DNA of 64,000 nt. It comes from Candidatus Bathyarchaeota archaeon. GTDB taxonomy: Archaea > Thermoproteota > Bathyarchaeia > Bathyarchaeales > Bathycorpusculaceae. A program made the position numbers and the translations under genes. Shown here piece after piece: positions 34,250 through 56,487 of the stretch. The DNA is taken from NCBI GenBank assembly GCA_963828195.1, contig CAWHDT010000008.1, forward strand, positions 1-64,000, given 5' to 3'. Below the pieces are notes generated by a model. That model ran no database searches, was not told the origin of the DNA, and saw nothing but the letters and a program-made list of their open reading frames with translations. Every line of letters begins with the position of its first letter. Position 1 is the stretch's first letter.

Positions 34250-36466
34250 TTAAGTAAAGTAAGCTGTTGCCGTTTGGTTTGTGTTCATTTCCAATGATGT
34301 ACTCTGAGTGGTCTGGTTTACTCCGTTGATTTTCCATTCATCAAAGCTATAGCCTGTGTTTGGATAGGCCGTGATTTCAACATTTGCTCCATTTGGAAAT
34401 TGCCAATTACCAGTAGTTGTAGTAATATTGCTATTATTGTATGACCAGCCAACTGTACCGGGACCGTTACAATTCTCGGTTAATACATAATATCCAGATA
34501 AACCTGTATTGCCTTGAAGTGTAGTGTTGTAGCTTGCACTCATGCTGATTGGTGTTCCTGTAACTCCTGAGAAATTGCAGTTTGCAATGTAAGTATTGTT
34601 CGCCGGGGAACCTGTATCTGTTATGCCTGAGCTGCAGTCTAAAAATGTGTTGCCTACGAAGTTAACGTCGAAGCCAGCGATAACAACAGGCTCATAAAAA
34701 ACGTTGTTTGTAATTTGTGCTCCGATAGTTTGGGTTGCTGGGTAGGTGCCTAAAGCATAGGCGGAGCATCCAGTTATTGTATTGTTGTTTACGATAGTAT
34801 TGACTGCTCCTTGAATCTGTATACCGTATAGTGAACTGCCCCCGCCGTTTAAGGTGTTACCCTGCATTAGGACATTGTTACTCGTCGATACAATGTTATA
34901 TGGACACAGAGACACTGTGTTGTTTAGAATATTCACATAATTACTGTTTTCAGCGGCTATTCCCCAGTGGCTTGCTCCTGAATACTGCGTGACGTTTTGG
35001 ACGTTGCAGTTTTCAATAGTGCAGTTTGATGCTTGAAAAGTGTTTATGCCGACGTCTTGACCTCCTATGTCTGTGCAAGCGTTTATGATGGAGTTAGATG
35101 AGCTTACATCAAGTGTTATTGGGTTGTCACCATCATTTATCGTGGTGCAATTTTGGACCAGTGAGTTGGCGCAGTTGAGAAGGTCTATTCCCTGCCCAAC
35201 AACGTTTTCTACGACAGCATTTTCCACTATAATACCGCTGTCTGCACCACCATAAAAACCGATTCCAAAATATATGCCAAAGTTGGCGTTCCAAGTACCT
35301 GTGTTTCTGAAATCGCTGAGGCTTCCTTTGTTACCGTTCCAAATTCCGCCATCAACAATAAAATTTTGAACCTGACCGCCAGTTAACATTAACGATATAC
35401 TGTCATTAAGGGCAGCTGGTGGGTTTTGGCTGATTGTTATTCCAGTTGCATTGAAGAAAACGTTACTTTGAGGAATCAAAGTTCCATCGAGAATGATAGT
35501 GCCATTAACTAATGTTACATCACCACCGCCAAGGGAACTAACCCAAGAAATAGCGTTGTTTATTATGGTTGAACTTGAACCTAAAGTGTATAAGCCATCA
35601 TCGCTGAAGTAAGTCCCGTTACCTAATTGCCCGCAATAAACATTTGTCGCAGAACCAACCCCGAGAGATGGCGTGCCAGCACGGAAAGTAACTATACAAC
35701 CGCTGTAATAACAGCCTCCAAGCGTTGTTCCTGAATCAGCTGCACCTGCACTGCTAACAACTTTGTAAAGATCTGCAAAGCTAATATATTCACCACTACT
35801 GCTATTGTCTAAAACGTTACCTGCACCTCCAACCATTTTGAAACTATTAGTAGAATTCGACTGCGCCGCGCCAGCCGCACTACTGCCCAAGCCGAAGATT
35901 CCACCTATCCACAATTCATCAGCTTGCGTAGTTACATTTGTCGTTCCTGTATCTGCGGTTTGAGTCAAACCGCCACTATTGTAAGCGGTTTGGTCAACAC
36001 AATTTGAAACGGCTAAACCAGACCATTCAAACACACTCGCCATTACCTCTGGATAACTGCCATACCCATTATCAACATTTATCGTTATGTTTGTACCGGC
36101 TTCAGGTAAAACTATACCGTACCAAACAGCTACAGACCCCTCATCAGTCGCTGGGCTCCAAATCACATTAACTTGTTTTATAATTGATATAGACGGGCTG
36201 CCTCCCCCGTAATCGATCCCGCCATAACAGAGAATAAGTACATCGCCACAAACTGGACTCTGCGATAGAGCGAGGTTGAAGGCGCCGCTGGCGATATTGG
36301 CTGTTGTTGTCTCTGGACCCTGAACTAATGTTATACCGCCATTGCCAATCACGCCGGAAGATTGAATGTTCACCGAAGTGGTTATCAGCGAAAAACCAAC
36401 TGTCGAAGCAATAAGTAGACATAACGTTAATGCTACAACTGTGTAAACGAAGCTGCGCTTTTTCAT
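34250..36466 (-). CDS. Secreted right-handed parallel beta-helix (pectin-lyase-like) protein with an N-terminal beta-rich domain and a C-terminal B-repeat-like domain
   Basis: Signal peptide MKKRSFVY...TVGFS; cap INNAISWVSSLGGGDVTLVNGT; stacked N/C/I repeats; C-terminal VEITAYPNTGYSFDEW. Confidence 0.8.
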   Translation of the reverse strand: MKKRSFVYTVVALTLCLLIASTVGFSLITTSVNIQSSGVIGNGGITLVQGPETTTANIASGAFNLALSQSPVCGDVLILCYGGIDYGGGSPSISIIKQVNVIWSPATDEGSVAVWYGIVLPEAGTNITINVDNGYGSYPEVMASVFEWSGLAVSNCVDQTAYNSGGLTQTADTGTTNVTTQADELWIGGIFGLGSSAAGAAQSNSTNSFKMVGGAGNVLDNSSSGEYISFADLYKVVSSAGAADSGTTLGGCYYSGCIVTFRAGTPSLGVGSATNVYCGQLGNGTYFSDDGLYTLGSSSTIINNAISWVSSLGGGDVTLVNGTIILDGTLIPQSNVFFNATGITISQNPPAALNDSISLMLTGGQVQNFIVDGGIWNGNKGSLSDFRNTGTWNANFGIYFGIGFYGGADSGIIVENAVVENVVGQGIDLLNCANSLVQNCTTINDGDNPITLDVSSSNSIINACTDIGGQDVGINTFQASNCTIENCNVQNVTQYSGASHWGIAAENSNYVNILNNTVSLCPYNIVSTSNNVLMQGNTLNGGGSSLYGIQIQGAVNTIVNNNTITGCSAYALGTYPATQTIGAQITNNVFYEPVVIAGFDVNFVGNTFLDCSSGITDTGSPANNTYIANCNFSGVTGTPISMSASYNTTLQGNTGLSGYYVLTENCNGPGTVGWSYNNSNITTTTGNWQFPNGANVEITAYPNTGYSFDEWKINGVNQTTQSTSLEMNTNQTATAYFT

Positions 36467-36728
36467 TCTGACGCAATCCTTAGTTAACCTACTTAAACAA
36501 CATGAAATCAAGTCAGTTCACGATATAAGTTTTTGTTTATTTCTGTTCACCAGATATACAGTACAACAGATATACAAAAAACTATAAGTAAAACTTAGGA
36601 AAAAATTCCATATTTAAACTTAAAAAGAACATCCTTTTACTAATTTTTATGATTAATAAAAACTCACAACGAAAAGCAGTCTTTTATATGATAAAATTTA
36701 AGTAATCAAGAAGTGAAGATGGTAGCAA

Positions 36729-37274
36729 ATGCTAAGTAAAGAAGAAGTACGTTTAGCACTGGTTATAGTCATTTGCTCAGCCATATTAGTATCTTCATGT
36801 GTTTATATATTCGTTTTTGCATCCGAAAAAACCACCTTTTTCCAGTTATCGTTAACTGGTCCTGATGGAGCTATTTTAGCGCCAGAATTAAACGTGGCAT
36901 CAAATGAAAATTGCTCTATGTTGTTAACTGTTCAAAACTCCATGGGCAATAATGAACAGTGCAGATTGGACGCTGAGCTTTCAATTTTAAATTCCACAGG
37001 TAACTTGGTAAATTCCACAGCCCTTAATGGCTACACTTTTAGCATAAACCAAAATGGCACTTGGAACCAAACTTTCACTTGTCAAATTAACAATAGCACA
37101 AATGATAATGTAAACATAATAACATTTGATAATACCTCATTTTCAGCAGGTCAATACAACGAAAATTTAATTTTCCAGTTTAGATTTGACTTATGGGCAT
37201 ATAATGACACTATTGGTACTTACTCTTACACAAATACCTGGGTTTCATCTCCATTCCTTGATCCAACAAGTTAA
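36729..37274 (+). CDS. DUF1616 C-terminal-like membrane-anchored protein
   Basis: One TM, then FFQLSLTGPDG, LTVQNSMG, FRFDLW; many sequons. Confidence 0.55.
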   Translation: MLSKEEVRLALVIVICSAILVSSCVYIFVFASEKTTFFQLSLTGPDGAILAPELNVASNENCSMLLTVQNSMGNNEQCRLDAELSILNSTGNLVNSTALNGYTFSINQNGTWNQTFTCQINNSTNDNVNIITFDNTSFSAGQYNENLIFQFRFDLWAYNDTIGTYSYTNTWVSSPFLDPTS

Positions 37275-37294
37275 ATTATAACATCGGCGATTGA

Positions 37295-38227
37295 ATGTTT
37301 AAAAAAAACAAGTTTCCTTCAGTTTCAATCGTTGTCATAGTTAGAAATATGCAAGGTACAATTAGCAGCTGTTTACAAAGTTTAACAAACCAAAACATAG
37401 CCCAAGATAAATACGAAATAATTGTCGTCGATAACAATTCAACCGACAATACAAAACAAATCATCCAGCAATACCCTGTAAGACTCTTTTCGGAGAAAAC
37501 TGTCGGCAATTTTGGAGGCGCAAGAAATAAAGGCATCAAAGAATCGAGGGGAGCAATAGTAGCCTTTGTCGATGCAGATTGCACTGTTGACAAAGGCTAT
37601 ATCCGCAAAATATTGAATTTTCATTCACTAAATCCCGACATTACCGGCATGTGCGGATCACTAATTAATCCATATCCCAAAAACAAAGTGGCTCGAACTC
37701 TCTGCTACGGCCAATGCGGTTTTTGGTCTCCCAAAGCTCCTAAGCGTCTTGTAAATTTCCTGCCAGGATGCAACAGCAGCTATCAAAAAGCTGCTTTGCT
37801 CGAGGTCGGTATGTTTCCTGAAGAAACTGCATCAGAAGATATTATTCTGGGACAAAAGCTAATAGCGAATGGTAAACGATTACTCTTTGACCCCTCCTAT
37901 CCGATTGTACATAATTTTGACAAATCGCTACAGATCTTGTCCAGAAAAGAAGAACGATGCGGGACAGCACATTTCAACATGTATTCGTCAAAGAAAAATA
38001 TGAATACGGCAAGATTAGCGGGCATAGTGTTTTTTATGCCAATATTCATTGTAGGTAGAACAATGACGGGTTTTCAAAGAATGCTGAAATTCTCGCTTGA
38101 TAAAAAAGATGCGATTCTGCTATTTCATTATTTAGTTTACTCAGGTGTTTTTTGGACAAGAGGATACCAAAAGCAGGCTTTCCGAGTGAGAAAAACTCAA
38201 CTAATTAATCAGAAGGTCGGAAAATGA
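37295..38227 (+). CDS. GT2 glycosyltransferase
   Basis: VVDNNSTD, ARNKG, FVDADC, SED. Confidence 0.9.
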   Translation: MFKKNKFPSVSIVVIVRNMQGTISSCLQSLTNQNIAQDKYEIIVVDNNSTDNTKQIIQQYPVRLFSEKTVGNFGGARNKGIKESRGAIVAFVDADCTVDKGYIRKILNFHSLNPDITGMCGSLINPYPKNKVARTLCYGQCGFWSPKAPKRLVNFLPGCNSSYQKAALLEVGMFPEETASEDIILGQKLIANGKRLLFDPSYPIVHNFDKSLQILSRKEERCGTAHFNMYSSKKNMNTARLAGIVFFMPIFIVGRTMTGFQRMLKFSLDKKDAILLFHYLVYSGVFWTRGYQKQAFRVRKTQLINQKVGK

Positions 38228-39306
38228 AGGTAGCGGTACTGTACTGGCAACTTGCCCATTTCGGAGGAGCTGAGAGGGTCGTTCTGTCAATTGCAAAAAA
38301 TTTCAATTCAACAATCTTCACAGGGAATTTCGACGCTTCCAAGACTTACCCAGATTTTCAAAAAACCAAGATTAAAACATATGGGAATCTGTTAATTAAC
38401 AGCCCGTTCAGAATGTATGAAGGCGCCCTTAATTCATTTTTACTGGACTTGAAAGAATTTGACATTATTAATCCTCACAATTTTCCAAACAATTCTGTGT
38501 CCTTACGATATGGTGACCGAACAGTCTGGTATTGCCATGCACCTCTGAGAGCTGTTTATGACCTTAAAGCGTACTATGCCAGTAAATTAAAAGTGGCTCA
38601 GAAGATCTTTTTTTGGTCACACCACTCAATGCTTGAAATAGTTGATAAAATAGCACTACAACGGATTAATAAGATACTGACAAATAGCCATGTTGCTGAA
38701 AAAAGAATAAAAAAGTATTACAAAAGAGACTCAGTTGTGGTATATCCTGGGGTAAATACTGATTTATATAAGAACGAAGAGTTTGGCGATTTTTTTCTTT
38801 TTGTAGGCGGTTTATCGAGATATTCGAACGAGTCTAACAAGAGAGTTGAACTTGCGATTGATGCCATGAGACTTCTCAAGGATAAGCAACTATACGTTGT
38901 AGGGGGAGGTACTCACAAGGCATATTTAGAAGCACATGCACCCAGTAATGTGAAGTTCCTTGGAAATGTCAGCGAAAAATCTCTTGCTGATTTGTATTCC
39001 CGATGTTCAGCAGTAATCTATCCTTCCTTTGATGAAGAATTCGGATATGTACCGGTCGAAGCTATGGCTTCGGGTAAACCTGTAATCGCCTGCAAAGACG
39101 GCGGTGGTGTATGCGAAACAATAATTGATAAGAAAACCGGTTTTATAGTGGAACCTAATCCTGCAGCTATCGCTCTTGCAGCTAATAAGCTAAAAGATAA
39201 AAAACTCCTATACGAAATGAGCGAGAATTCGCTGCAGCGAAGTTTAATGTTCTCTGAAAAAAAGTTTATTGAAGGCATTAAACAGAATTTTGATTTTTCC
39301 CAATAA
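38224..39306 (+). CDS. GT4 glycosyltransferase (WbaZ-like)
   Basis: GGAERV, WYCHAP, EEFGYVPVEAMASGKPVIA. Confidence 0.9.
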   Translation: MKVAVLYWQLAHFGGAERVVLSIAKNFNSTIFTGNFDASKTYPDFQKTKIKTYGNLLINSPFRMYEGALNSFLLDLKEFDIINPHNFPNNSVSLRYGDRTVWYCHAPLRAVYDLKAYYASKLKVAQKIFFWSHHSMLEIVDKIALQRINKILTNSHVAEKRIKKYYKRDSVVVYPGVNTDLYKNEEFGDFFLFVGGLSRYSNESNKRVELAIDAMRLLKDKQLYVVGGGTHKAYLEAHAPSNVKFLGNVSEKSLADLYSRCSAVIYPSFDEEFGYVPVEAMASGKPVIACKDGGGVCETIIDKKTGFIVEPNPAAIALAANKLKDKKLLYEMSENSLQRSLMFSEKKFIEGIKQNFDFSQ

Positions 39307-39405
39307 AGCTATAACGTCTAACGATATCATAGTTTCATTTCATTATCTCAGAAAGGTTTACTATTTGCAAAAGTATATGTTTGAACGACATCAGGAAGAT
39401 AGAAA

Positions 39406-39804
39406 TTGAATTCATCTAAAAATCACCCAAATGTGCAACGCCTTTCTATCTATTCGGCTCTTTGGTACATAGGGGTGATAGTAGTTATTGCGCTGTCAAT
39501 TGATTCTATGGTTTTAATATCTCCCACAAATTTTCCTTTAGCAATATTAAGATGGTTCTCTGGTTTAATCATGCTTACATGGGTTCCCGGCTTCTGTTTT
39601 GTAAAATTACTTTTCCCCTTTAAGACAGCAGGAAGCCCCGAAACAATCACCTTAAGCGTCGCATTAAGTATTCTCTTTACGATTTTAATCGCCTTACTCT
39701 GTAACTTCACCCTTTTGGGGCTCTCCGAAACACCGATAATGGGTATTTTATTTGCAGTTTCAGTTACGTTTGCCAGTGCTGCAATTTACAGGCAAAATAA
39801 ATAG
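39406..39804 (+). CDS. DUF1616 N-terminal-like four-TM protein
   Basis: LRWFSGLIMLTWVPGFCFVKLLFP...ETITLSVALSI...LCNFTLLG. Confidence 0.7.
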   Translation: MNSSKNHPNVQRLSIYSALWYIGVIVVIALSIDSMVLISPTNFPLAILRWFSGLIMLTWVPGFCFVKLLFPFKTAGSPETITLSVALSILFTILIALLCNFTLLGLSETPIMGILFAVSVTFASAAIYRQNK

Positions 39805-39821
39805 CGCGCGCTTGTGGGATT

Positions 39822-40859: not shown

Positions 40860-40875
40860 GTGTTGCTAATGACTG

Positions 40876-42027: not shown

Positions 42028-42160
42028 GTTGTAAAATTGTCTATTTTTTCAGGATGACGTTTTAAAATGGCTCTCATTAATTAATGGAGCGGATTTCCAA
42101 AATGAATATAGCTCGCCCATATTAAAGAATTGGTGCATTAGGTATAAGGAGTTTATTAAT

Positions 42161-43279: not shown

Positions 43280-43552
43280 GCATAAACTAGAATTCAGTCA
43301 ATCTTGGAGAACGAAAGCTGAAAATATCCCTTTGAACTTTATAAGTTTAATTAGGATTGACTGATCGAATAACCAGAGTTTAAAGACATTCTGGGCAAAA
43401 CGCACAGGGCGGATTAAAATAATTTCCATTTATATTAGAAAAGCTCGACCGCGTTTTATCGATGTTAATGCAGAGGTCAGCACATATTACCGTTGTATGC
43501 GGTCGAATTCTTTGTATGAAAAGATCGTTGAGAGTTTTGCAAATAAAATGAA

Positions 43553-45329: not shown

Positions 45330-46913
45330 ATGAGCAAAGCCGCAGAATTGGCTAAAGTTTCAGCAAAAGGTAGCTTTCACCTACTGTGGGGTTTAGTAAT
45401 CTCCACGGGTATCTCCGCAATTGCCACGATTTTCATCGCGAGACTACTCGGTTCAGATCTATACGGCCTATACGGAATCGTGCTGATCACACCCAACCTC
45501 ATAGGAGTATTCCGAGACTGGGGCATAAACTCCGCAATGGTAAGATACACAGCCCAATTCCGCTCAGAAGACAGAGCATCAGAAGTCAGAAGCATACTCA
45601 TCTCCGGAATAGTCTTCGAAATAGCCCTCGGAATGGCATTATCCGCAATATCTTTTTTGCTTTCAGGTTATATTGCGACAGACATATTCCATCGGCCCGA
45701 AATAACATCCTTAATCCAAATAGCCTCAATCACAATCTTAGCCGGCGGACTCATCAATGCAGCCACAGCCGCATTCACCGGCATCGAAAAAATGGAACTC
45801 AACAGTGTCATGCTCGTTTGCCAATCCATCATAAAAACAGTTATCATTATTACACTAGTTATATTGGGATTACGCACATCCGGAGCAGTGATTGGGTATA
45901 CAGTCGCCATGTTAACTGCTGGGCTTATAGGTCTGGCACTTGTGTGGACTCTATACAAGAACCTGCCAAAACTAAGCAATGTTAAACTCAAAATTAGAGC
46001 CTACACAAAATTAATGCTGGCATATGGCACGCCTCTGTCGCTTTCAGCAATCATTGGCGGCTTTCAAAGTCAATTTTACGCTTTTTTGCTGCCAATTTTC
46101 TACGTCACTAACAATTCCGCGATAGGCAACTATGGAATAGCCAGCACTTTCGTAGTTCTAATAGCGTTCTTTGCAACACCGATTACAACGATGCTGTTTC
46201 CAGCGTTCAGCAAGCTCAACCCGCAAAAAGACAAAGAAACCCTGAAAAACGTCTTCCAATTCTCAATCAAATACGCATCACTCCTCGTAGTGCCAGTGGC
46301 AGCGCTCGTTATGTGTCTAGCTGAACCAGCAGTTTCTACACTGTTTGGGAAAACATACTCGACGGCACCACTGTTTTTGACGTTGCTTGCAATCACCTAC
46401 ATCTTCCCAGCCGTCGGAAGCCTAACTGCGGGCAATTTTATCAGCAGTCAAGGAAAAACCACGTTCATCCTGTACCTAAACCTGCTCTCAGCAGTCATCG
46501 GCTTCCCCATGGGTTACATCCTAATTATGAAGTTTGGAGTTTTAGGACTGATTGTAACTACGCTAGTAGATGGGATTCCCTCCACTGTCATATCGCTTTA
46601 TTGGATAAGAAAACATTACGAGCTGAATGTAGACTGGCATTCGTCGGCAAAAATTGTGCTGTCATCCACGATAGCCGCCGCCTCAACCTACATTCTCATC
46701 TCAGAGCTCAGCTTCGCCAACTGGATACGGTTAATTGTAGGCATAATATTCTTCGCATTTGTATTCGTCGCCGCAGCTTTGTTAACTCAAACAATAAACA
46801 AAGCTGACATAGAAAACTTGCGTGGGATGGTAAGCGACCTGGGAATAATTGGCGAAATGTTCAATAGTATTCTAAACATTTACCAAAAACTTATGGAACA
46901 CCTCCGGCATTAA
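45330..46913 (+). CDS. Wzx/MOP-family oligosaccharide flippase
   Basis: ARLLGSDLYGLY, DWGINSAMVRY, LFPAFSK; about 14 TM helices. Confidence 0.88.
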   Translation: MSKAAELAKVSAKGSFHLLWGLVISTGISAIATIFIARLLGSDLYGLYGIVLITPNLIGVFRDWGINSAMVRYTAQFRSEDRASEVRSILISGIVFEIALGMALSAISFLLSGYIATDIFHRPEITSLIQIASITILAGGLINAATAAFTGIEKMELNSVMLVCQSIIKTVIIITLVILGLRTSGAVIGYTVAMLTAGLIGLALVWTLYKNLPKLSNVKLKIRAYTKLMLAYGTPLSLSAIIGGFQSQFYAFLLPIFYVTNNSAIGNYGIASTFVVLIAFFATPITTMLFPAFSKLNPQKDKETLKNVFQFSIKYASLLVVPVAALVMCLAEPAVSTLFGKTYSTAPLFLTLLAITYIFPAVGSLTAGNFISSQGKTTFILYLNLLSAVIGFPMGYILIMKFGVLGLIVTTLVDGIPSTVISLYWIRKHYELNVDWHSSAKIVLSSTIAAASTYILISELSFANWIRLIVGIIFFAFVFVAAALLTQTINKADIENLRGMVSDLGIIGEMFNSILNIYQKLMEHLRH

Positions 46914-47236: not shown

Positions 47237-47455
47237 CTAATGCTTAATTTTGGATGAGGCAAAAGAACTGCGAAGGTGAGTTTTTCTGTTTGGTTGTGTA
47301 ATTTTGGTTTTAATTTTTCCCTCTGCTTGTCCGACCCAGCAAAGACTCCATCCTATGAACGCGACTAAAACCCCTACGGGAATCATCAACACTCTGAAAA
47401 ACCGTATTCTTCTTTTTTGTATTACGTACGTATTTCTTTGGACTTTACAGGCCAT
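47237..47455 (-). CDS. Small single-TM hypothetical protein
   Basis: RRIRFFRVLMIPVGVLVAFIGWSLCWVG hydrophobic segment directly downstream of the wHTH gene. Confidence 0.4.
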   Translation of the reverse strand: MACKVQRNTYVIQKRRIRFFRVLMIPVGVLVAFIGWSLCWVGQAEGKIKTKITQPNRKTHLRSSFASSKIKH

Positions 47456-47466
47456 TCGAAATTACC

Positions 47467-47853
47467 TCAGTTAAAGTTTCCGATGTTTGGGTTCTCAATT
47501 GAAACCGTTGCGGTTTTTCGAATATTGTTTTCGGTGATTGCTCGGAAATGTACTGTCTTCGAGATTCGCCGTTTGTTTAGCCAACCCATTCTTGATAGTT
47601 GATTTAGATAATTGCTTTCAATTGCGCGACATCGACCTGTAAGATTAGATACCTGTACCGCGTCGCACTCTCCTTTGGAAGATACGATGACGTAAGTTCT
47701 TCTTAAGTGGTCTGGCAGGGTGATTAGTTCTGATTCAGGTACCTCTACGGCTTGAGGCTTCCAATTTGAAAAGTTGTTTTCAATTTCATCAAGCCGTGAA
47801 CGTATATGCATCATTTCTTTGAATATGTCTTCGAGGATTGACCTTCTAACCAA
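47467..47853 (-). CDS. Coiled-coil plus winged-helix transcriptional regulator
   Basis: LPDHLRRTY...VSNLTGRCRAIESNYLNQLSRMGWLNKRR..KTVHF; GGAAGGGAG RBS before the TTG at 47853. Confidence 0.75.
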   Translation of the reverse strand: MVRRSILEDIFKEMMHIRSRLDEIENNFSNWKPQAVEVPESELITLPDHLRRTYVIVSSKGECDAVQVSNLTGRCRAIESNYLNQLSRMGWLNKRRISKTVHFRAITENNIRKTATVSIENPNIGNFN

Positions 47854-48121
47854 TTTATCTCCCTTCCTATAGCTGTACAAGCGAGCAAGCCCCAAATAAC
47901 GTTTTTTGCAAACTGCATTCGAGCAGTTAGTCAACTCCAATAGAAAGAAGCGAAGGCGACTTCGCAGAATTGCAAAGAAGAATTAACAAGGCTTTTTGGC
48001 GCTCGCCTTTCACTATATTTGTAATAATTTTCAAATATATATGCTTTTATCCAGCCTCCTAAGTCTGCGTTGTTTAGTTGGAGACTAAAGCTTGCTACGT
48101 CGACCGCGCCTGAGCGTGCAG

Positions 48122-48598
48122 CTATGGATTTGTGCCCCCGATGCAGATATTGACGCTGAAGCCTGTGACATCCACTATACTTGAGGATACGATCAGGGTC
48201 AGGGTTGCGGCTGCTGATTGCCCAGGCAAAAGGTCAATGCCTTGTTGATTCCACGTTACACTTATTGATCCACTCGCGTTCGTTGAACTCCAATTATTTG
48301 TCGTCATGCTCAGGGTTAATGAGAGGCCGCTGCTTGTGTTTTTGACATAGATTGTTTGATTTGTGGTTCCCCCAGGGCTTAAGGTTCCCCAGTTTATGGT
48401 GCTTAGGGGTTGTGTGCACGCGCTGTCAGAATACACAGCTAAGTTTGCCGACGTGGTCACTGTGCCAATGGAAGGCACATTTTGAGATGTGGTGATGGCT
48501 GCAAAGGCGTTGAGTGATAAAGCTATTGCTAGTATGATTGCTGCCGCCGTGATGATTATCCATAAAAATCTATTCTTCCCTCTGAAATCTTTTTTCAA
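48122..48598 (-). CDS. Secreted TasA/camelysin-like beta-rich protein (paralogue 1)
   Basis: Signal peptide ending NAFA; INWGTLSPGGTTNQTIYVKNT resembles the TasA/CalY LxPGD..x.xKNxG motif. Confidence 0.6.
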   Translation of the reverse strand: MKKDFRGKNRFLWIIITAAAIILAIALSLNAFAAITTSQNVPSIGTVTTSANLAVYSDSACTQPLSTINWGTLSPGGTTNQTIYVKNTSSGLSLTLSMTTNNWSSTNASGSISVTWNQQGIDLLPGQSAAATLTLIVSSSIVDVTGFSVNICIGGTNP

Positions 48599-48959
48599 AA
48601 ATCTTCCACCCTAAACTCCTTTTCTGTCATCTTTTTCATGACCCTTTTATGCTTTAATCGAAATACGGTTAAACTAGAAGCGAACATAACTTGCATAAAA
48701 AACCCCGAGAAAAACAGAGCATTATTTTCTATAAATTAAAAAATTATTTCTATTTCTAAAACACAGATTATCAAATCAGCAGCTTGCTGAAGCCTAAAAA
48801 TAGCCTACAATGGCACTGCGGTTTATTAATGTCAACTGAAAATTTTAGGTCTGACTGCACAGTAAGCCTAAAAAATCATTTTTCTGCAGACTCTCGTCTT
48901 TGCGCCACTCGAGGCAGCGGCACAGTATCAAGCGGGCTAATCCGCGTCACCTAAGCGAC

Positions 48960-49442
48960 TCACGAGTTCGCCATTCCAGATATTGAAATATCAACGCTGA
49001 AAGACGTAATTCCAGTTGTACTCGCTGCCACTGTCAACGAAATTGTTGCCGCAGTTGATTGCCCAGGTGCAAGCACAACGCCTGCTTGGTTCCAACTTAT
49101 TGTTAACGGCCCATTAGCGCCTGTTGGGCTCCAGTTACTTGTCTGCATACTCAGCGTCAACGGAACGCTTCCTGTATTGTTGACGTAGATTGTTTGGGTT
49201 ACTGTTCCACCTGGCGAAACTGAACCCCAATTTATGGATGTTAAAGGAACAGTGCAAAGACTATCTGAATAAACTCCTAAACTTGGTGAGGCGGTATTTG
49301 AAGTGACGGACACCGATGAGGTAGTGATTGACCCCGACGAAACTATGTTTGCGCTATCACTAACTGTGCCGTAAGCCATCAGAGATAATGCTAACACGAC
49401 TAAAACCAGCGCTATTATTGCAACATACGGGATTCTTCTCAT
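48960..49442 (-). CDS. Secreted TasA/camelysin-like beta-rich protein (paralogue 2)
   Basis: Signal peptide ending MAYG; INWGSVSPGGTVTQTIYVNNTG; clear paralogue of 48122-48598. Confidence 0.6.
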   Translation of the reverse strand: MRRIPYVAIIALVLVVLALSLMAYGTVSDSANIVSSGSITTSSVSVTSNTASPSLGVYSDSLCTVPLTSINWGSVSPGGTVTQTIYVNNTGSVPLTLSMQTSNWSPTGANGPLTISWNQAGVVLAPGQSTAATISLTVAASTTGITSFSVDISISGMANS

Positions 49443-49570
49443 AAACTATCCTTACAATAACAAAATGCAGTTTAGCCTATGAATTTCAGTGTACATGAGA
49501 ACAACAAAAATACACAAGATAGTATTTTGCCCGCTTCTCCAAGCCATGACGCTAAAGCGGACCAGCGTCT

Positions 49571-49909
49571 TCAACCTGGCAAAAAATAATTAGAAACTAA
49601 AAAAGCTATAAAGCCTAACATGACTGTTTTGGGGTGGTTGAATGTATGCCAGATCGCCCGCAGGGCGATGCATGTGGTTTTTCCAGCTTGCCTGCTCCAT
49701 CGAACCACAATGCGTTTGCGGGTGTCGCGAAGAAGCTGCGCTTGATACTGCTTTGCGTCGAAGCCAAATAGGTCCATGGCAAAAACAACAGGGTCATCCG
49801 AAACCACTGATCGTTTCTGTTCATGGTTTGGTTCACGTTCCAGCAGATTTTTCTTCTGTCGCTCGATTTCCTTGCTCGCTTCTTTGAGCCTGCAATTTTT
49901 TGACTTCAT
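49571..49909 (-). pseudogene. N-terminal fragment of a terminase large subunit (ATPase)
   Basis: DPVVF...YQAQLL...RIVVRWSRQAGKTT (Q motif plus Walker A of phage terminases); ends about 30 aa later with no Walker B or nuclease domain. Confidence 0.75.
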
Positions 49910-50234
49910 CGACTAATCGCTCCACTTCAGCTAAATCTTCGTTGAATTGGTGTTCATCGTACCCTTTTGCGAGGTTTCCCATGACCATGGCGATGTGCGC
50001 AGCGATGTGAGCCCACATCTGCCGTTGCTTTGGGGTTATGAACTCTGTTCTGCCGCCGACTCTTTGCCTGTTGACTTCGCCTTTGGCGATTAGGTTGGCG
50101 ATGGTGAAGGTGGCGTCTAGTTTGTCCATCCACATTCTTCGGAGACGCTGCGTGTCGCAATCGGCGGTTTCGCGGAGCTGGGTTATGTGTCTTTGGACAA
50201 AAAATGTGTATCCTCTGTTGGCTCTAGCTCTCAT
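49833..50234 (-). CDS. Helical hypothetical protein overlapping the terminase fragment (small-terminase position)
   Basis: AGGGG RBS; helical/coiled-coil C-terminus; directly upstream of and overlapping the terminase ORF. Confidence 0.55.
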   Translation of the reverse strand: MRARANRGYTFFVQRHITQLRETADCDTQRLRRMWMDKLDATFTIANLIAKGEVNRQRVGGRTEFITPKQRQMWAHIAAHIAMVMGNLAKGYDEHQFNEDLAEVERLVDEVKKLQAQRSEQGNRATEEKSAGT

Positions 50235-50869
50235 AATTTAAATCCCCCTGAAAACTTGATCCCGGTTATGTTTGGAGATCCAGCTGTTTAGCTGCAGGAA
50301 AAAGGCGCTCTACAACGCCACTCGACGGCGGCGAAACAGTCATTTTTCCTTGGCTGATACGTATGAGCGGAAAAAGTATTTAGGCATTGTCAACATCTCC
50401 CGCTCAATCGGCAGCTGAGAAATCTTTGTTTTATATAAGAACACGTTAAACATCTATGACTAACTTTTGAATCATACATGATTCATGATTCAAGGCACAC
50501 TGCAATGCGCTTCACCTATATTAACGTCACCTCAAAATCTCAGGTCCACACTGCACAATAAGCCCAAAACACCCATTACCGTGCACCAGCAAGATGAAAA
50601 AAAGCGCAAATATCATCAAATATATTTACTACCGAAGCATAAGTAAAGAGTTCCCAGGTCATTCATTAGAGGAGTAATTTAGGAAGAGAAGTGACGGTAT
50701 GAAGAGAAATCTTCCATCAGCGAATATGCTCTGCTTTTCAGCAGCGGGTGACATATTCCAGTTCTTGAATTATTCAAGCCATAGAAAACTAGCTTATACC
50801 ACGATGCCCTACTCCAAATTACAATCAAACAAGATCCCACATTATTCCAGAACCCCAATCTAAGTTAAC

Positions 50870-53800
50870 ATGAATCATCAAGATGAAAGAACCGTGAAGA
50901 AACAAAAAATCCTGATAATCGCATTCCTAATTTCGCTGTCAATCTGCGCATTCGCGAGCATGCAAGCCAAAGCTCAACCGACAGTTCCTACAACGACGAC
51001 TACTGTGCTTTCTCAGAATACTATCACTTTTGGCGGTTCTGTAACCGACACTGCGTCTGTTACCTCGGGCGCTACCGGGTCAGTTACTTTCTACGTTTCA
51101 ACCGACGGTGTTTCTTGGACTCAGTTGGATACAGAACCTTTAACTGCTAACATTGCGAGTTCCAATGCTTATTATCCGTCGGCTGCCGGCACCTACTATT
51201 TCATGGCAACTTACAGCGGCGACAGCAATTTCTTGACTTCTTCGAGCGGTGCCTTTGATGAGCTTTTGACGGTTAACCAGGCTTCTTCAACGACGACTAC
51301 TTCGCTCTCTTCGAGCACCATCACTTTGGGAGGTTCTGTAACCGATACTGCGACCGTTACTGGCGTCTCAGGTTTCGCTGTTCCTACTGGGACAGTCCAG
51401 TTCTATGCTTCAACTGATGGTGGTTCTACTTGGAATTTGTTTGATACGGAATCTTTGAATGTTGTGGGCACCGCTACTTCCATTCCTTTTGCTCCGTCGG
51501 CTGCATCGGCTACTGGCGCCTCCTACTACTTCTACGCGGTTTATAGTGGCGACAATAATTATGCGGGTTCTCAGAGCGGTTACACTGATGAGCCTTTGAC
51601 TGTGAATGAGGCTGCGACGACCACTGCTACTTTGCTTTCGCCTCTTGGCCCGATAACTTTGGGCGGTACGGTGGCGGATACGGTAATAATCAGCACTTCT
51701 GCTTCTGGCACTTTGCCTTCTGCTACTGGTACATGGACGATTTATGCGGCTGACAATTCCGCAATGACAGATGAGGTGTCGATTGGTAGTGGAGCCGTTT
51801 CTGGCGCTTTGAGTTTCTCGGCGACTACTGCGCCTTGGACTGCGACGCATGCTGGCACCTGGTACTTCCAAGCTGTTTACAGCGGCGACGGTAACTATGC
51901 CGGTTCAATGAGTACGCCAACTGATGAGGCGCTCGTTGTAAATGTGGCTCCGACTGTGAGTGTGTCACCCAATTCTGGGGCTATGGATGTTAGTCAGTCT
52001 ATGACGCTCACTGCTACGGTTTCTGGCGGCACTTCTCAGTATACGTATCAGTGGCTTCAGATGGCTCCTAGTGCCAGTTCTTACTCCGCGATTAATGATG
52101 CGACTTCATATAGCTATTCTTTTGCTACTACAGGTTCTACAGCGACAGGTGTTTGGAGCTTTGAACTTCAGGTAACTGATAGCGCGGGGGCAGTAATCAC
52201 TTCTTCTGCTGCAACGGTTACGGTGGCTGCTTCGCCGACTGTAAGTATCGCTCCTGTCGGTCCAGTTGCCTTGGATGTAGGTCAGGTACAGGCGTTTACG
52301 GCTACTGCTATTGGCGGTTCTGGTTCTTTGTCTTATCAATGGTATTTAGATGGCTCTGCAGTTGGGTCTGACAACTCTGGTTATTCTTATACTGCTTCGG
52401 GAACTTCGCATACAGTTACTTGCAAGGTGACTGACAGCGCTTCTGTCCCAGTTACGTCTTCTGCTTCAAACGCAGTTACAATTACAGTGGCTGCTTCGCC
52501 GACTGTAATCATCTCTCCTACCGGTCCGCTTACTCTGGATGCTGGTCAGATTCAGACCTTTACTGCGATAGCAAGTGGTGGTTCAGGCACTTTGTCTTAT
52601 CAGTGGTACTTGGACGGCGCCATGCTCAGCTCTAACAGTGCAAGCTATCTCTATACTGCTTTAGCCGGCTTGCATTCGGTTACCTGTAAGGTAACTGACA
52701 GCGCTTCTACCCCAGTTACTTCTCCAGTTTCCAACGCCGTTTTGGTTACGGCAAATTCTGCATTAATTGCCCCAACTGAGACATCCACTCCTAGCACTGT
52801 TGACCAGGGTCAGACTGTCAGTTTGACCTCTACAGCTGTAACTACAGGAACTTCTCCTTATACATATCAGTGGCTCCAGAAAGCTCCTGACGCGAGTTCT
52901 TACTCAGCGATAAGCGGTGCGGTTTCATCTAGCAATTCTTTTGCCACTTCTAGTTCTACAACCACTGGGACATGGAGTTTCGAGCTTCAGGTCACTGACG
53001 CAGCCGCTGCAGTAACCACTTCGAACCCTACGGTGGTTACGGTGAATTCTGACCCGACTGTTACCGTGACACCCACTTCTTGGACGATGGATGTTGGTCA
53101 GAGTAAGACGTTCTCTGCTAGTGCTAGTGGCGGTTCGGGTACTTACACGAGTTATCAGTGGTATGTAGGCGGGTCAGCTCAGTCTGGTAAAACTGCGTCA
53201 ACGATTAGTTTTGCTCCTGGGTCTTCGGGTTTCTACTTGATTACTGTGGCGGCTACAGATAGTTTAGGTGTGACTTCGATTCTATCTTCCCCTGCGACTG
53301 TTGCAGTGAATGTTGCGGGTGACAGCTACTTTGAGGTTTCTGGCTTTCCAAGTTCTGCCACTGCTGGTGTGGATCACACAATCACGGTGACAATTTATAA
53401 CGCGGATGGTAACGTTGACACTAATTATGCGGGTACGGTTGCGATTACATCAAGTGACAGCAACGCGGTTCTGCCTGCCAATTCTGGTCTCACTGATGGT
53501 GTCGGCTCTTTTACTGTAACTTTAGAGACTGCCGGCTCTCAGTCAATCACAGTTACCGACACATCAAATAGCTCGATTACAGGTTTTCAGAGTGGAATAA
53601 CAGTTAATCCGGCTGGTCTAGATCACTTTGTCTTGAGTAATGTTGGAACTCAAACTGCTGGTTCTGCATTCAGCATAACAATTACGGCAGAGGACGTGTA
53701 CGGGAACACGGTTACAGGGTATAGTGGTGAACCGTCTTTGACGTATTCTGCTGGGTCAATTACTCCGTCTTCCGCGACTGGTGGCTTCTCGAGTGGTGTT

Positions 53801-54652
53801 TGGACCGGTATGGTTACGGTGACTGCTGCCAGTTCAGGCGTTACTATTTCCGCAACTGACGGCACTCAAACGGGTACAAGTAACTCGTTTACCGTTACTT
53901 ATGCTGCTGTCGCTAATGTCGTAATTTCTACTGATGCTTCATCGGTTACAGCCGGGGATTCTTTGACTTATTATGCTATGGCTTATGACGTATATAGAAA
54001 CGCTTGGGATGTGACTTCTTCAACGATTTGGAGCATAAACTCCGGCGCTGGCGGTTCATGGAATGGAAACGTTTACACTTCTGTGACTGCTGGTTCCTGG
54101 ACAATTACTGGAACGTACGCTTCAGCGACTTACACTATTGGTTTAAAGGTTAATCCAGCTGGTCTAGATCACTTTGTCTTGAGTAATGTTGGAACTCAAA
54201 CTGCTGGTTCCGCTTTCCGCATAACAATTACTGCCGTTGACGCGTATGGCAACGTAGTTACGGGCTACAATGGCACGCCGACTTTGAATATTTCAACTGG
54301 GACTATTAGTCCAAATTCTCCCGGTTCCTTCTCAAGTGGAGTTTGGACAGGTATGGTTAACATTACTACGGCTGATTCAGGCCTTACCATTACGGTTACT
54401 GATGGCAGTCATTCTGGAACTAGTAACCCGTTTATGGTGACGTTGGCGCCAACATCCACTCCAACTCCCCCAACACCGACCCCCTCCCAAACTTCGACAG
54501 CACCGCCGAAGTCAGCATCATCATTTGGACTTGCGCTTGTCGCCGTCACAACCGTCGCCGAAATCATCATTATCTTCGCAGTAATAGTCATCATACATTT
54601 TAGACGAAAAACTGGCAAAGCAACCCTTTCGGCTCATTTTCTTAGTGTTTGA
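50870..54652 (+). CDS. Large S/T-rich surface protein with tandem Ig-like (Big_3/PKD-like) repeats, PT linker and C-terminal TM anchor
   Basis: Signal peptide; three Y.F.A.YSGD.NY repeats; several YQW repeats; two LDHFVLSNVGTQTAGSAF repeats; PTPTP linker, TM helix and RRK tail. Confidence 0.85.
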   Translation: MNHQDERTVKKQKILIIAFLISLSICAFASMQAKAQPTVPTTTTTVLSQNTITFGGSVTDTASVTSGATGSVTFYVSTDGVSWTQLDTEPLTANIASSNAYYPSAAGTYYFMATYSGDSNFLTSSSGAFDELLTVNQASSTTTTSLSSSTITLGGSVTDTATVTGVSGFAVPTGTVQFYASTDGGSTWNLFDTESLNVVGTATSIPFAPSAASATGASYYFYAVYSGDNNYAGSQSGYTDEPLTVNEAATTTATLLSPLGPITLGGTVADTVIISTSASGTLPSATGTWTIYAADNSAMTDEVSIGSGAVSGALSFSATTAPWTATHAGTWYFQAVYSGDGNYAGSMSTPTDEALVVNVAPTVSVSPNSGAMDVSQSMTLTATVSGGTSQYTYQWLQMAPSASSYSAINDATSYSYSFATTGSTATGVWSFELQVTDSAGAVITSSAATVTVAASPTVSIAPVGPVALDVGQVQAFTATAIGGSGSLSYQWYLDGSAVGSDNSGYSYTASGTSHTVTCKVTDSASVPVTSSASNAVTITVAASPTVIISPTGPLTLDAGQIQTFTAIASGGSGTLSYQWYLDGAMLSSNSASYLYTALAGLHSVTCKVTDSASTPVTSPVSNAVLVTANSALIAPTETSTPSTVDQGQTVSLTSTAVTTGTSPYTYQWLQKAPDASSYSAISGAVSSSNSFATSSSTTTGTWSFELQVTDAAAAVTTSNPTVVTVNSDPTVTVTPTSWTMDVGQSKTFSASASGGSGTYTSYQWYVGGSAQSGKTASTISFAPGSSGFYLITVAATDSLGVTSILSSPATVAVNVAGDSYFEVSGFPSSATAGVDHTITVTIYNADGNVDTNYAGTVAITSSDSNAVLPANSGLTDGVGSFTVTLETAGSQSITVTDTSNSSITGFQSGITVNPAGLDHFVLSNVGTQTAGSAFSITITAEDVYGNTVTGYSGEPSLTYSAGSITPSSATGGFSSGVWTGMVTVTAASSGVTISATDGTQTGTSNSFTVTYAAVANVVISTDASSVTAGDSLTYYAMAYDVYRNAWDVTSSTIWSINSGAGGSWNGNVYTSVTAGSWTITGTYASATYTIGLKVNPAGLDHFVLSNVGTQTAGSAFRITITAVDAYGNVVTGYNGTPTLNISTGTISPNSPGSFSSGVWTGMVNITTADSGLTITVTDGSHSGTSNPFMVTLAPTSTPTPPTPTPSQTSTAPPKSASSFGLALVAVTTVAEIIIIFAVIVIIHFRRKTGKATLSAHFLSV
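53612..54210 (+). repeat. 53-bp exact intragenic direct repeat (53612-53664 and 54158-54210)
   Basis: gctggtctagatcactttgtcttgagtaatgttggaactcaaactgctggttc occurs twice, 546 bp apart. Confidence 0.9.
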
Positions 54653-55422
54653 ACCAAAAAAACGCAGCATACCCCAATGGTAAGAAAGTACCCTTGATTT
54701 AACTAAGACTGAATTGGGCATAGTATTCGCCAATTAACCTGTTGGTTGAGCTTTTAGATGGGTGTCTCTACTGCCACTTGAATCAAGGCAAAGCTCGTTT
54801 TTAATCGATTCTGGAAGTGCAAAAGACTTAACTTTTAAAAGCTACACCAGATACAACCTTTTTTAATCGGTTTTTTGTGTTATTTCTTTCTAGTCAGTCG
54901 TGACTAAGTTCCCAGATAGCTCTTGCTTGTAATGCTTATTCCCAGCGAGAAACATATACATAAATATCATGCTTAAAACAAAGGCAATACTTCCAAGCCT
55001 GATAAAAGTGAAGAACGGTGCATAATTAAGAAACAGGTCATTAAAATCAACTTTATCGATAACTATTCATGCGACAATGTAGAGCCAAAGAAGAAAAGTG
55101 TATAACCAAAGCGTAGCGAACAGCGCTCTCTTTTTCCTAATAATCTTCCTCCAACCATGGCAACATATGCAACACCTACTTGCACACATTCACATTGAAG
55201 AACTTTCACCTATTTTCGTCCTTATAGAAGCTGACCAGCTTTAAGTATCGCGGATTTCAGCATCATTAGAGAGATTTCTCTCAGAAGTTTCTAGGGGGTT
55301 ATTAAAGTTGGCCTCGATTTGAGATTTGGGTATTTTTTGGGAAAACCGAGTTAAATACTTCACGATAGTTTGGTTTCTTTGATTAGAGTGAGATTTGTCA
55401 TGGGTGAGACTCTGAGCTGGAG

Positions 55423-55635
55423 GTGGTAAGGCTGGCTGGTAAGGCTGCGGAGATGGCTAAGGTTTCTGCTAAGGGCGGGTTCTATCTTTTCTGGGGCGTT
55501 GCCGTTTCGGCTGTTGTTTCAGCGGTCGGCGTCATTGTCTTGGCTAGAGTCTTGCAGCCTCAGGATTATGGTTTGTACACGATTGCCTTGGCTGCGCCAA
55601 CCTTGATTGGGACGTTTCGGGATTGGGGGCCTTAA
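55423..55635 (+). pseudogene. 5' fragment of a second Wzx flippase
   Basis: KAAEMAKVSAKGGFYLFWG...FRDWG matches the N-terminus of 45330-46913 and stops right after DWG. Confidence 0.85.
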
Positions 55636-56025
55636 ATCCATTCAAAATAAAAAAAGAGGAAAACTGATGTCTCCACTGGAGGGAGCATTCAAGGTCTACC
55701 GAGGCGAGGCTAATCGTAAAGATGATTTTCAGAAAAATTATACGTGTAATAATTTAAACTAAAACTAAAGATACCTTGTCAAACTTTAATTCAAGAAACA
55801 ACTTAAATAAATAGCGAATGGAACAGATGAAATAATTGTCTAGAACATTAATCTGATTGGTCGGTGGTTTATTGAATCTGGTATGGCTGATTCAGTCGTA
55901 TGATGGCATGAGATGGCTGTATTGGCAATTCTGTAGTTTTGTTGTTCAATTATGCGCTTGTCCCAGATGAGCAATAAGATTTATTAAGACTTAATACACA
56001 ATTTCTTCAAAAGAGGGGAATAAAT

Positions 56026-56487
56026 ACGAAAAAACCTAAACTCCCAGTAACAACAGTTCTCATAGCTTTAGTTGCCATCGCAATAGCCCTGACACTAACA
56101 ACTTATGCGGCTCTAAGCACAAATTCAAACTTGCCATCAAACGGCACGATTTCCTCAACCGCAAACTTAAGTGTGTACTCTGACAGCGGCTGCACCCAGC
56201 CCTTAACTTCCTTAAATTGGGGAACTCTCACTGCGGGAGAAACAACAAATCAAACAATCTACATTAAGAATACAAGCAGCGGCCTCTCATTAACTCTCAA
56301 CATGACAACAAGCAGCTGGTACCCAACAACTGCTAGTGGAGAAATGACTGTAACGTGGAACCAGCAAAATACGGATCTTCAGCCTGGATCATCAGTTCCG
56401 GCGATCATAACCCTGACGGTTTCTCCAACTGAAGTTGACCTCACAACCTTTAGTGTTCAAATAGACATCGGCGGAACAAACCCATAA
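56026..56487 (+). CDS. Secreted TasA/camelysin-like protein (paralogue 3) with an ACG start, or a start-codon-loss pseudogene
   Basis: The frame extends 35 codons upstream of 56131 and encodes a full signal peptide (KKPKLPVTTVLIALVAIAIALTLTTYA); GAGGGG RBS 7 nt before ACG; ends IGGTNP like paralogue 1. Confidence 0.65.
   Translation, partial: TKKPKLPVTTVLIALVAIAIALTLTTYAALSTNSNLPSNGTISSTANLSVYSDSGCTQPLTSLNWGTLTAGETTNQTIYIKNTSSGLSLTLNMTTSSWYPTTASGEMTVTWNQQNTDLQPGSSVPAIITLTVSPTEVDLTTFSVQIDIGGTNP

Follow-up and report, generated by a model that had tools for sequence, protein, structure and literature searches.

Why should three small secreted proteins of an archaeon and a large one built around a beta-helix begin, directly behind their signal peptides, with the same short segment? 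The question is raised by a stretch of 64,000 nucleotides (nt) of contig CAWHDT010000008.1 (assembly GCA_963828195.1, Candidatus Bathyarchaeota archaeon), which is referred to below as the window; the whole genome of 2.83 Mb is coded G000. The answer which we favour, at a probability of roughly 50%, is that the small genes encode the subunits of a Sec-exported, chaperone-free surface fibre and that strand-bearing beta-helix proteins plug one of its ends. Such a fibre in Bathyarchaeia looks like an undescribed relative of the biofilm fibres known from archaea and bacteria. Solved structures of donor-strand fibres exist for Sulfolobus, Pyrobaculum and Pyrodictium, and for haloarchaea there are models or structures. 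We found no literature linking Bathyarchaeia to donor-strand fibres; the supplementary list of TasA homologues in PMC9245690, which lay outside this search, could bear on the point.

The segment shared by four secreted proteins

The four genes named in a preliminary description of this DNA (Table 1), and the segment common to their products, were confirmed by a check of the open reading frames (ORFs) and by profile and hidden Markov model (HMM) ranking. In each product a Sec-type signal peptide precedes the segment h-x-S-x-G-x-h, and the cleavage sites, AFA↓A, AYG↓T and TYA↓A in the small proteins and GFS↓L in the beta-helix protein, were assigned from sequence by the -3/-1 rule. The small proteins (about 155 aa) are paralogues, as had been stated: they are 52-59% identical and have in common the blocks VYSDSxCT, NWG..G..QTIY..NT, WNQ and FSVxIxIxG. 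In paralogue 1 the predicted cleavage after residue 33 of the Sec-type precursor is followed by the putative donor strand (residues 34-49) and by an immunoglobulin (Ig)-like body from about residue 50, and in paralogue 2 a 10-residue insertion separates the strand from the body. How far does the likeness of the fourth protein to these three go beyond chance? Of the 13,302 six-frame ORFs of 60 aa or more which the 2.83-Mb genome yields, a regular expression written from the four proteins matches these four and no others, a test which is circular. When a 14-residue profile was made from the three small proteins only (BLOSUM), the segment of the beta-helix protein was the best non-self window of 1,774,759 six-frame windows, with a score of 30.7 against 28.3 for the next, and the match falls exactly on the signal-peptide junction. 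A 19-position HMM built from 58 family members, with all beta-helix proteins left out, likewise had this protein as its top non-family match (11.2 bits, E 0.4, 19,663 ORFs); it was not among the best 30 matches of an HMM of the strand made from three sequences. On this sequence evidence we regard the similarity as credible and beyond chance, but it is short and weak when taken alone, and it owes its credibility to its position and to its recurrence on other proteins.

This recurrence is seen best on the beta-helix proteins, where we call the segment the tag. The 738-aa protein of the window consists, in order, of a signal peptide, the tag (residues 27-40), an unnamed beta-rich domain (about 44-290), a right-handed beta-helix (about 400-600) and a C-terminal Flg_new_2 repeat (Pfam: Beta_helix PF13229 4.7e-14, NosD 4.9e-7, Flg_new_2 7.4e-9); an alternative upstream TTG start of its gene is possible at 36511. 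The N-terminal similarity had been expected to persist in homologues, and the tag is indeed kept in the orthologue P0122 and in those of G265 (which matches P0123), G267 and G003, where the four inward-facing residues are I, S/F, G and I/V. Five beta-helix proteins share this pattern while what follows the tag varies, being a 250-aa domain, the helix at once or a Pro/Thr linker. In the G003 orthologue the whole 250-aa N-domain is absent and the tag runs straight into the helix, and proteins having only the N-domain carry no tag. A second beta-helix protein of the genome, on contig C3, has SPQTSINIQSNGAV behind its signal peptide and then a Pro/Thr linker. In the family of this protein h-x-S-x-G-x-h, typically as TLxSSGVVQQ, lies within residues 11-80 of 43 of the 53 members, compared with 10/53 for a control stretch, and five of the ten members without the motif are N-terminally cut gene calls. 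The distance from tag to helix ranges there from 8 to 81 residues of Pro/Thr repeats, three among the larger values being inflated because the regular expression matched first inside the signal peptide. Since the tag recurs on beta-helix proteins, sometimes in front of Pro/Thr linkers of varied length, we see in it a separable, tethered module, and since its alternating pattern is kept while signal peptides and downstream architecture diverge, the tag appears to be under selection. A co-variation of tag and subunit within genomes, seen in G000 (ITTS/ITTS) and G003 (NVS/NVS), fails in G265 and G267 and was dropped.

What could the tagged protein do? Its AlphaFold2 (AF2) model has a mean predicted local distance difference test (pLDDT) value of 57.7, and in so poor a model the coil state of the tag says little. 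Among the Foldseek matches of this low-confidence beta-helix are GH87 glucanases, AlgE epimerases, the PfbA adhesin and phage tailspikes, and the beta-helix resembles glycan-active right-handed beta-helices. Of the glycan-active domain proposed earlier, the resemblance to the GH87 and AlgE folds has been found, while the binding or cleavage of glycans is what we infer from it.

The subunit family and its modelled assembly

The small proteins belong to a large family. A search by word index gave 205 relatives, about 150 aa long, two of which carry a source name, both being metagenome-assembled genomes of Bathyarchaeia. When the profile was searched exhaustively, the representative clusters numbered 3524 at E<=1e-3, 2159 at 1e-10 and 359 at 1e-30. 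The family is present in 27 of 41 related genomes, with 1-7 copies each, and in 20 of 24 within the genus. An alignment of 58 family sequences was used for conservation, the HMM and the trimer model. In this alignment the segment behind the signal peptide is conserved family-wide, G45 (numbering of paralogue 1) is invariant in 58/58, and W70, G71 and F147 are each at least 90% conserved. The body scores as an ASH/PapD-type Ig domain by Pfam and Foldseek. The ASH/PapD-like Ig models considered were PF22544, PF22073 and PF15780; paralogue 2 matches PF22544 (HYDIN/VesB-like Ig) with 28.2 bits at a cut-off of 25.5, and at E<=1 the 58 members match Cep192_D4 (42/58), HYDIN_VesB (38/58), ASH (14/58) and CARDB (10/58), most of them below the cut-off. 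Strand and body also occur in other combinations. In the subunit homologue L045 a Pro/Thr linker stands between them, P0245 has a strand-bearing Ig body ahead of Big domains and a membrane anchor, and the body is found without the strand behind Golvesin_C in P0204 and behind other N-terminal domains in P0209 and P0138. Strand-only and acceptor-only proteins fit the ends of a polymer, in the logic of terminal subunits; these facts also fit a generic Ig module.

The AF2 monomer of paralogue 1 (pLDDT 84.8) is modelled as a sandwich of eight strands, the first of which is formed by residues 41-49. Its best solved Foldseek matches are FimA 6r7e (E 7.5e-5), then 6r74, 5lp9, 5nkt and 2m5g (to 9.6e-4), and the self-complemented FimA 6erj and CfaB 4y2l were also found, with ASH/PapD/MSP domains next; the TM-scores of the FimA matches are low, at 0.39-0.46, so the likeness to FimA and CfaB is a resemblance and no evidence of kinship. 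Would several copies of the protein share the first strand? Three copies of mature paralogue 1 (residues 34-158), modelled with the family's own 58-row alignment, gave a median interaction prediction score from aligned errors (ipSAE) of 0.64, compared with 0.01 for the best of three controls. At least 98% of the contacts recur between runs, with a partner pLDDT of 91. In the calibration 20 of 30 proteins solved as same-chain pairs came up to the ipSAE mark, as did one of 23 solved as single chains, counts which apply roughly here (own alignment, three copies), and a pass supports binding without showing it. Residues 34-49 of copy 3 face residues 49, 51-55, 65-75 and 140-158 of copy 2, the tightest pairs being G45 with W70, G71, F147 and S148, S43 with 148-151, and V47 with 73, 75 and 137. 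This interface coincides with the most conserved residues of the family (G45, W70, G71, F147). The earlier proposal that the small subunits are joined by a donated first mature strand is in this way upheld in silico, the model predicting donor-strand complementation between subunits with the strand in trans. A separate observation concerns the single cysteine of VYSDSxC (C61 of paralogue 1, 48416-48418), which is invariant in 58/58 and lies outside the modelled interface residues.

In the mechanism which we propose, and which is moderately supported as far as the fibre goes, signal peptidase I would cut after the putative [AT]-[FY]-[AGS] site, and the first 14-16 mature residues (inward V41, S43, G45 and V47 in paralogue 1) would leave their own Ig-like body. 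The strand would then lie between the second (65-75) and the last (140-158) strands of the next subunit, giving a head-to-tail polymer. As the beta-helix proteins have a similar strand and no acceptor domain, they would be expected to fill the free groove at one end. Plugged in there, in the manner of TapA with TasA and of TafC with Tat-fimbriae, the tag might nucleate or cap the fibre, and the capped end would present a domain that binds or cuts glycans. By analogy, these roles match those proposed for TapA, AbpB, Saci_0405 and TafC. The polarity of the fibre, its anchoring and any enzymatic activity we likewise infer. If the mechanism is true, a function would be gained for a family of thousands of unnamed proteins, and an ASH/PapD-type Ig body would polymerise via an N-terminal strand without chaperone or usher. 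There would also be a short transferable tag fixing enzymes to a fibre, a candidate tool for protein display, and the finding would bear on the ways in which archaea of soils and sediments, largely uncultured, attach to polymers and process them. Could the portable 14-residue tag even be a general docking system, by which tagged secreted proteins clip onto Ig-type fibre subunits by beta-strand complementation while acceptor-only lectin-Ig proteins close the other end? We consider this extension doubtful. It would amount to a pilus-borne, non-covalent display of enzymes, cellulosome-like in function and built on donor-strand exchange, and the cargo here would be glycanase-like beta-helices, tethered by Pro/Thr stretches that differ in length. 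The lineage is supposed to feed on polymers from plants and sediments.

Other explanations and known fibre systems

Several observations weigh against a fibre. Pairwise BLASTP of the segment-bearing proteins is not significant (E 0.39 and 1.8), and the family-only HMM, applied to seven tag carriers, gave 9.5 bits for the protein of the window, 9.9 for that of G003 and 2.4-3.6 for three others and missed two of the seven; twelve control proteins reached at most 1.1 bits. Homologues of the window's beta-helix protein (E<=1e-10) occur in just 2 of the 41 related genomes, G000 included, compared with 27 for the subunits, and a tag-region profile run on the same genomes gave two long-frame matches, of which one is a credible additional carrier, the beta-helix protein of G003. 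The other, in G008, was rejected, as it covers the signal-peptide part only and has no tag on reading. The profile of the beta-helix partner (A4) matches 20 of 301 genomes of the order, most matches being to the N-domain only. A protein so sporadic is no obligate nucleator of the family's fibres. In the locus there is no dedicated peptidase, the sole TIGR02228 matches of the genome lying on contig C5, no anchor subunit was found in it, and DUF5305 (PF17231) has no match at E<=1 in the genome. The Ig body is found, moreover, inside ordinary multidomain surface proteins with a dockerin (P0198) or with CarboxypepD_reg repeats (P0256). Lastly, the AF2 monomer sets residues 41-49 in cis with good confidence; the segment could be plain strand A of a complete Ig domain, and the predictor may favour strand swaps. 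In the fold check suggested in the preliminary description the monomer has the strand in cis, neither TasA nor AbpA is among the 50 matches listed, and the trimer has the strand in trans. The trimer shows the kind of donor-strand complementation that has been modelled for AbpA, the threads and Tafi, whose AlphaFold monomers likewise self-complement (PMC9245690, PMC11821415).

The main rival to a fibre built by strand exchange takes the shared segment for an extended region of the signal or sorting type. A peptidase or some other factor of export or anchoring would recognise it, and it would be removed by a cut after S-x-G or used for surface retention; the small proteins would be ordinary secreted Ig-domain proteins that have their export cassette in common with the beta-helix proteins. 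By the -3/-1 rule S43 and the invariant G45 would suit a cleavage site, so the segment could be cut off, which also counts against the fibre. In the strand-less fused forms (P0209, P0138, P0204) the Ig body begins about where a start at T46 would fall, the segment occurs on unrelated cargo, sometimes with a Pro/Thr linker at once behind it, and the genome has two tandem archaeal-type signal peptidase I genes. However, the four proteins, like the family as a whole, have a canonical small-aromatic-small site directly behind the hydrophobic core, and a site 12 residues further on needs a c-region of about 16 residues, which is unusually long for signal peptides. Both predictors place the segment in the Ig sheet with high confidence, with the invariant glycine packed on W70 and F147. 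In the solved TasA, AbpA and thread structures, too, the conserved segment behind the cleavage site is the donor strand (PMC9245690, PMC9715654). A sorting region seems to us unlikely on balance, if still the most serious of the competing explanations.

Less probable again is that the small proteins are monomeric surface proteins of the ASH/CARDB Ig type with the strand in cis, the trimer being a modelling artefact and the tag the product of an old 5' recombination or of chance that serves no function today. The self-complete monomer model would be explained in this way, as would the presence of the same Ig body in multidomain proteins and the fact that Pfam recognises generic Ig families alone (the counts for Cep192_D4, HYDIN_VesB and CARDB are given above), and the tag similarity is statistically weak when taken alone. 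Against this stand the homotrimer, with its ipSAE far above the controls and its consistent interface, the alternating pattern of the tag, which outlasts the divergence of signal peptide and downstream architecture, and the 1-7 small single-domain paralogues per genome, which are pilin-like.

The small proteins had been called TasA-like, and as a statement of kinship this finds no support: no Peptidase_M73 (PF12389) match exceeds the cut-off, the body scores as an Ig-type domain, and the best look-alikes are FimA and CfaB. Neither the three proteins of the window nor the whole genome have a PF12389 match at E<=1, and the control search does ring in B. subtilis. Could they nevertheless be true, very distant members of a TasA superfamily comprising TasA, AbpA, AbpX, CanA, the threads and Tafi, and not a separate Ig-type solution? 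Peptidase_M73 matches below the cut-off are found in 4 of the 58 members (best E 0.0063; best score 16.8 bits, cut-off 22.5), and that of P0114 (residues 31-112, profile positions 5-79) extends over the signal peptide and the strand into the beginning of the body. A BsaA/SipW match is faint (E 0.095), the nearest named clusters in the ESM Atlas are DUF1102 (0.88) and camelysin (0.84), both under the lead level of 0.9, and the AbpX preprint puts Tafi, a FimA look-alike, in the TasA superfamily. Nothing, however, exceeds the cut-off for PF12389 or for DUF1102 (PF06510), the latter having one match below it elsewhere in the genome, on C9, and not being among the 25 of 48 families listed for the 58 members. 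The subunit profile (A2), run against all PDB sequences at E<=10, found no TasA, AbpA, thread or CanA chain, none of these is among the best 50 Foldseek matches listed, and the significant Pfam matches are to ASH/PapD-type Ig domains. We hold such a distant membership to be no more probable than the monomeric surface protein. That the small proteins are FlaG/FlaF-type archaellum accessory proteins, as the JGI auto-name 'archaellum component FlaG' on 6 of 120 homologues listed (P0025, P0060, P0070, P0080, P0087 and P0088) and a sub-cut-off Arch_flagellin match of P0114 (E 5.5e-4, 20.7 bits vs 29.5) would have it, is hardly credible and the naming was rejected, for PF01917 is touched by 1/58 members, under the cut-off, the three proteins of the window have no such match at E<=1, and the neighbourhood is a glycosylation and surface-protein cluster with no archaellum genes among the ORFs read.

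As our working likeness for the proposed fibre we take the whole class of donor-strand fibres, with Tafi/DUF1102 the closest, rather than kinship with TasA, which is not shown. The Tafi set used for comparison comprises the Tat-fimbriae TafA/TafE/TafC of Haloarcula hispanica, the Sec-dependent DUF1102 clusters of Thermococcus and Archaeoglobus, and the Mth60 fimbriae. The fold matches of TafE include 5NKT, 2M5G, 6R74 and 6R7E (PMC11821415), which are also among the top Foldseek matches of our subunit. According to the same paper, Tafi loci have two or three small paralogous subunits of about 150-200 aa, their assembly is modelled as N-terminal donor-strand exchange, and a larger protein with an N-terminal donor strand and an adhesive domain is modelled at the tip as initiator. 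The differences are that our subunits have no DUF1102 match over the cut-off, that the genome has no homologue of TafG (DUF5305) at E<=1, that the peptidase genes lie on C5 and none corresponding to TafD lies in the locus, and that no twin-arginine motif is visible in the signal peptides. The candidate tip domain here is a right-handed beta-helix, whereas that of Tafi is laminin-G-like (PMC11821415), and our candidate is sporadic, as described above (2/41 genomes).

In the TasA-TapA-SipW system of Bacillus subtilis the secreted subunit donates its first mature strand, as it does here by model, and a minor protein gives the first complementing strand, with no chaperone or usher (PMC9245690). 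TasA is, however, a Peptidase_M73 jelly roll, whereas the body here scores as an Ig-type domain with no PF12389 match over the cut-off, and the larger strand-bearing protein lies 12 kb away and is unrelated to TapA. There is also no dedicated SipW-like gene beside the subunits; a search for one elsewhere in the genome, proposed earlier, led to two archaeal-type signal peptidase I genes (TIGR02228) in tandem on C5 (G000:C5:767652-769068, L001-L004; frames of 230 and 227 aa). AbpA/AbpB of Pyrobaculum calidifontis shares with our proteins a Sec signal peptide for which a generic signal peptidase is assumed, an N-terminal donor strand that enters the neighbour's sheet, with AlphaFold monomers that self-complement, and a larger neighbouring protein proposed as first-strand donor and adhesin (PMC9245690). 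AbpA is a jelly roll detectable as PF12389 by HHpred and conserved only in Thermoproteales and Thermofilales (PMC9245690), whereas our subunits have no match to it in the PDB sequence search or among the 50 Foldseek matches listed. The threads of Sulfolobus (Saci_0406) are made of Sec-exported subunits processed by signal peptidase I, with donor-strand complementation and conserved first residues after the cleavage, and have a proposed cap, Saci_0405, with a strand and without an acceptor site (PMC9715654). The thread subunits are heavily glycosylated (PMC9715654), and the locus here adjoins a glycosylation cluster. The beta architecture of the thread subunit differs in being made of two parts, with isopeptide bonds, and the thread cap is a paralogue of the subunit (PMC9715654), whereas our candidate cap is an enzyme-like beta-helix; no Saci_0406 match was found in the PDB profile search (E<=10) or among the 50 Foldseek matches listed.

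FimA and CfaB, the chaperone-usher pilins which our subunit matches best among solved structures, likewise form polymers of Ig-like subunits plus an N-terminal extension, and the two-domain terminal subunits of the type of the tip adhesin FimH may be compared with P0204 (Golvesin_C and a strand-less Ig body). The strand which these pilins lack is the C-terminal G strand, and their assembly needs a periplasmic chaperone and an outer-membrane usher. Archaea have no outer membrane. Among the neighbouring ORFs scanned there was no match to an usher or a PapD-type chaperone, in a scan that was not a search aimed at those families.

The gene neighbourhood

The features of the window discussed here are collected in Table 1.

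Table 1. Positions of the subunit genes, the beta-helix gene, their strand segments and neighbouring genes in the window
Feature	Position (nt)	Strand	Basis
Secreted beta-helix protein, 738 aa	34250..36466	-	Pfam, homologues, Foldseek of low-confidence model
Tag of beta-helix protein, residues 27-40, LITTSVNIQSSGVI	36347..36388	-	Directly behind predicted GFS↓L site; top profile/HMM matches
157-aa protein downstream of paralogue 1, faint TrmB-type helix-turn-helix	47467..47940	-	TrmB E 0.099, below cut-off
Subunit paralogue 1, 158 aa	48122..48598	-	ORF; family matches, AF2 monomer, trimer model
Predicted donor strand of paralogue 1, residues 34-49, AITTSQNVPSIGTVTT	48452..48499	-	Trimer contacts and G45 invariance
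Subunit paralogue 2, 160 aa	48960..49442	-	ORF, alignment, PF22544 match
N-terminal strand segment of paralogue 2, TVSDSANIVSSGSI	49326..49367	-	Alignment, regular expression, 14-residue profile
Ig-rich surface protein, 1260 aa, Pro/Thr stalk, C-terminal membrane anchor	50870..54652	+	Big_3_5, Ig_3, PKD
Subunit paralogue 3	56026..56487	+	59% identity to paralogue 1; all invariant residues kept
N-terminal strand segment of paralogue 3, ALSTNSNLPSNGTI	56110..56151	+	Alignment, 14-residue profile
DUF5658 membrane protein, 85 aa, recurrent subunit neighbour	56717..56974	-	PF18902 3.8e-8

Between 22 and 47 kb the window holds a cluster of glycosyltransferase, deacetylase and flippase genes. In loci from 6 of 21 related genomes a subunit gene has a DUF5658 homologue at a distance of up to about 1.5 kb, and in G003 the DUF5658 gene is syntenic. 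Homologues of the 157-aa protein adjoin subunit genes in loci from 4 of 21 related genomes; going by its sequence it is a possible regulator. The gene of the Ig-rich 1260-aa protein sits between the subunit genes, and from this position the protein may be tied to the fibre. G003, a complete genome, has the beta-helix gene, two subunit genes and DUF5658 together in 10 kb; between the beta-helix gene and the two subunit genes lies, in addition, the gene of an Ig-rich anchored protein of 1384 aa, whose signal peptide is the same as that of its 1260-aa counterpart. In G265 the beta-helix gene is about 10 kb from the subunit genes.

The third subunit gene proved to have the ORF and the signal peptide ascribed to it and to lack a standard start codon. 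Its frame is open from 55978, with no ATG, GTG or TTG upstream of the signal peptide; position 56026 is an ACG, which aligns with the start Met of a homologue, and an in-frame ATA at 56020 stands just behind GAGGGG. The C3 beta-helix gene is likewise without ATG, GTG or TTG before an otherwise complete signal peptide, and in both genes an in-frame ATA precedes the charged n-region (56020-56028 in paralogue 3; L031 6631-6640, G000:C3 about 396630, in the C3 gene). Could both genes use a non-standard start codon, or have lost their start recently? Among the runs listed, none of RNA covers 47400-50300. DNA contigs of four runs were compared with 55300-56700, and the single contig which spans the start of paralogue 3 (run X2) is identical to the window; it may derive from the window's own sample and so gives no independent word on the odd start codon.

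Some further observations concern other parts of the window and the genome. Just upstream of paralogue 3, a short frame at 55408-55635 (+) repeats the first 70 or so residues of the flippase at 45330-46913 (AELAKVSAKG...FRDWG) and then stops, which looks like the remnant of a duplicated flippase gene. Between the second subunit gene and the Ig-rich gene, 49571-50234 (-) holds overlapping ORFs of 112 and 133 aa with no Pfam match, one of which has a Walker-A-like GKT motif; this may be a fragment of a mobile element. In the glycosylation cluster, the ORFs 36729-37274 (+) and 39406-39804 (+) match DUF1616 profile positions 156-278 and 4-118, respectively, and have three genes between them; perhaps a membrane protein has been split or rearranged here. 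Two other places resemble DNA-processing or defence genes: 1592-4134 (-), with an ATPase-like ORF of 488 aa and a partner of 359 aa that overlaps it, and 15709-20031 (+), a 1440-aa helicase/nuclease-like ORF. On contig C3 an ORF translation (L031 13311-13694, G000:C3 about 403300-403700) shows regularly spaced 'FQFYLSSIST', a direct-repeat array which is possibly a CRISPR.

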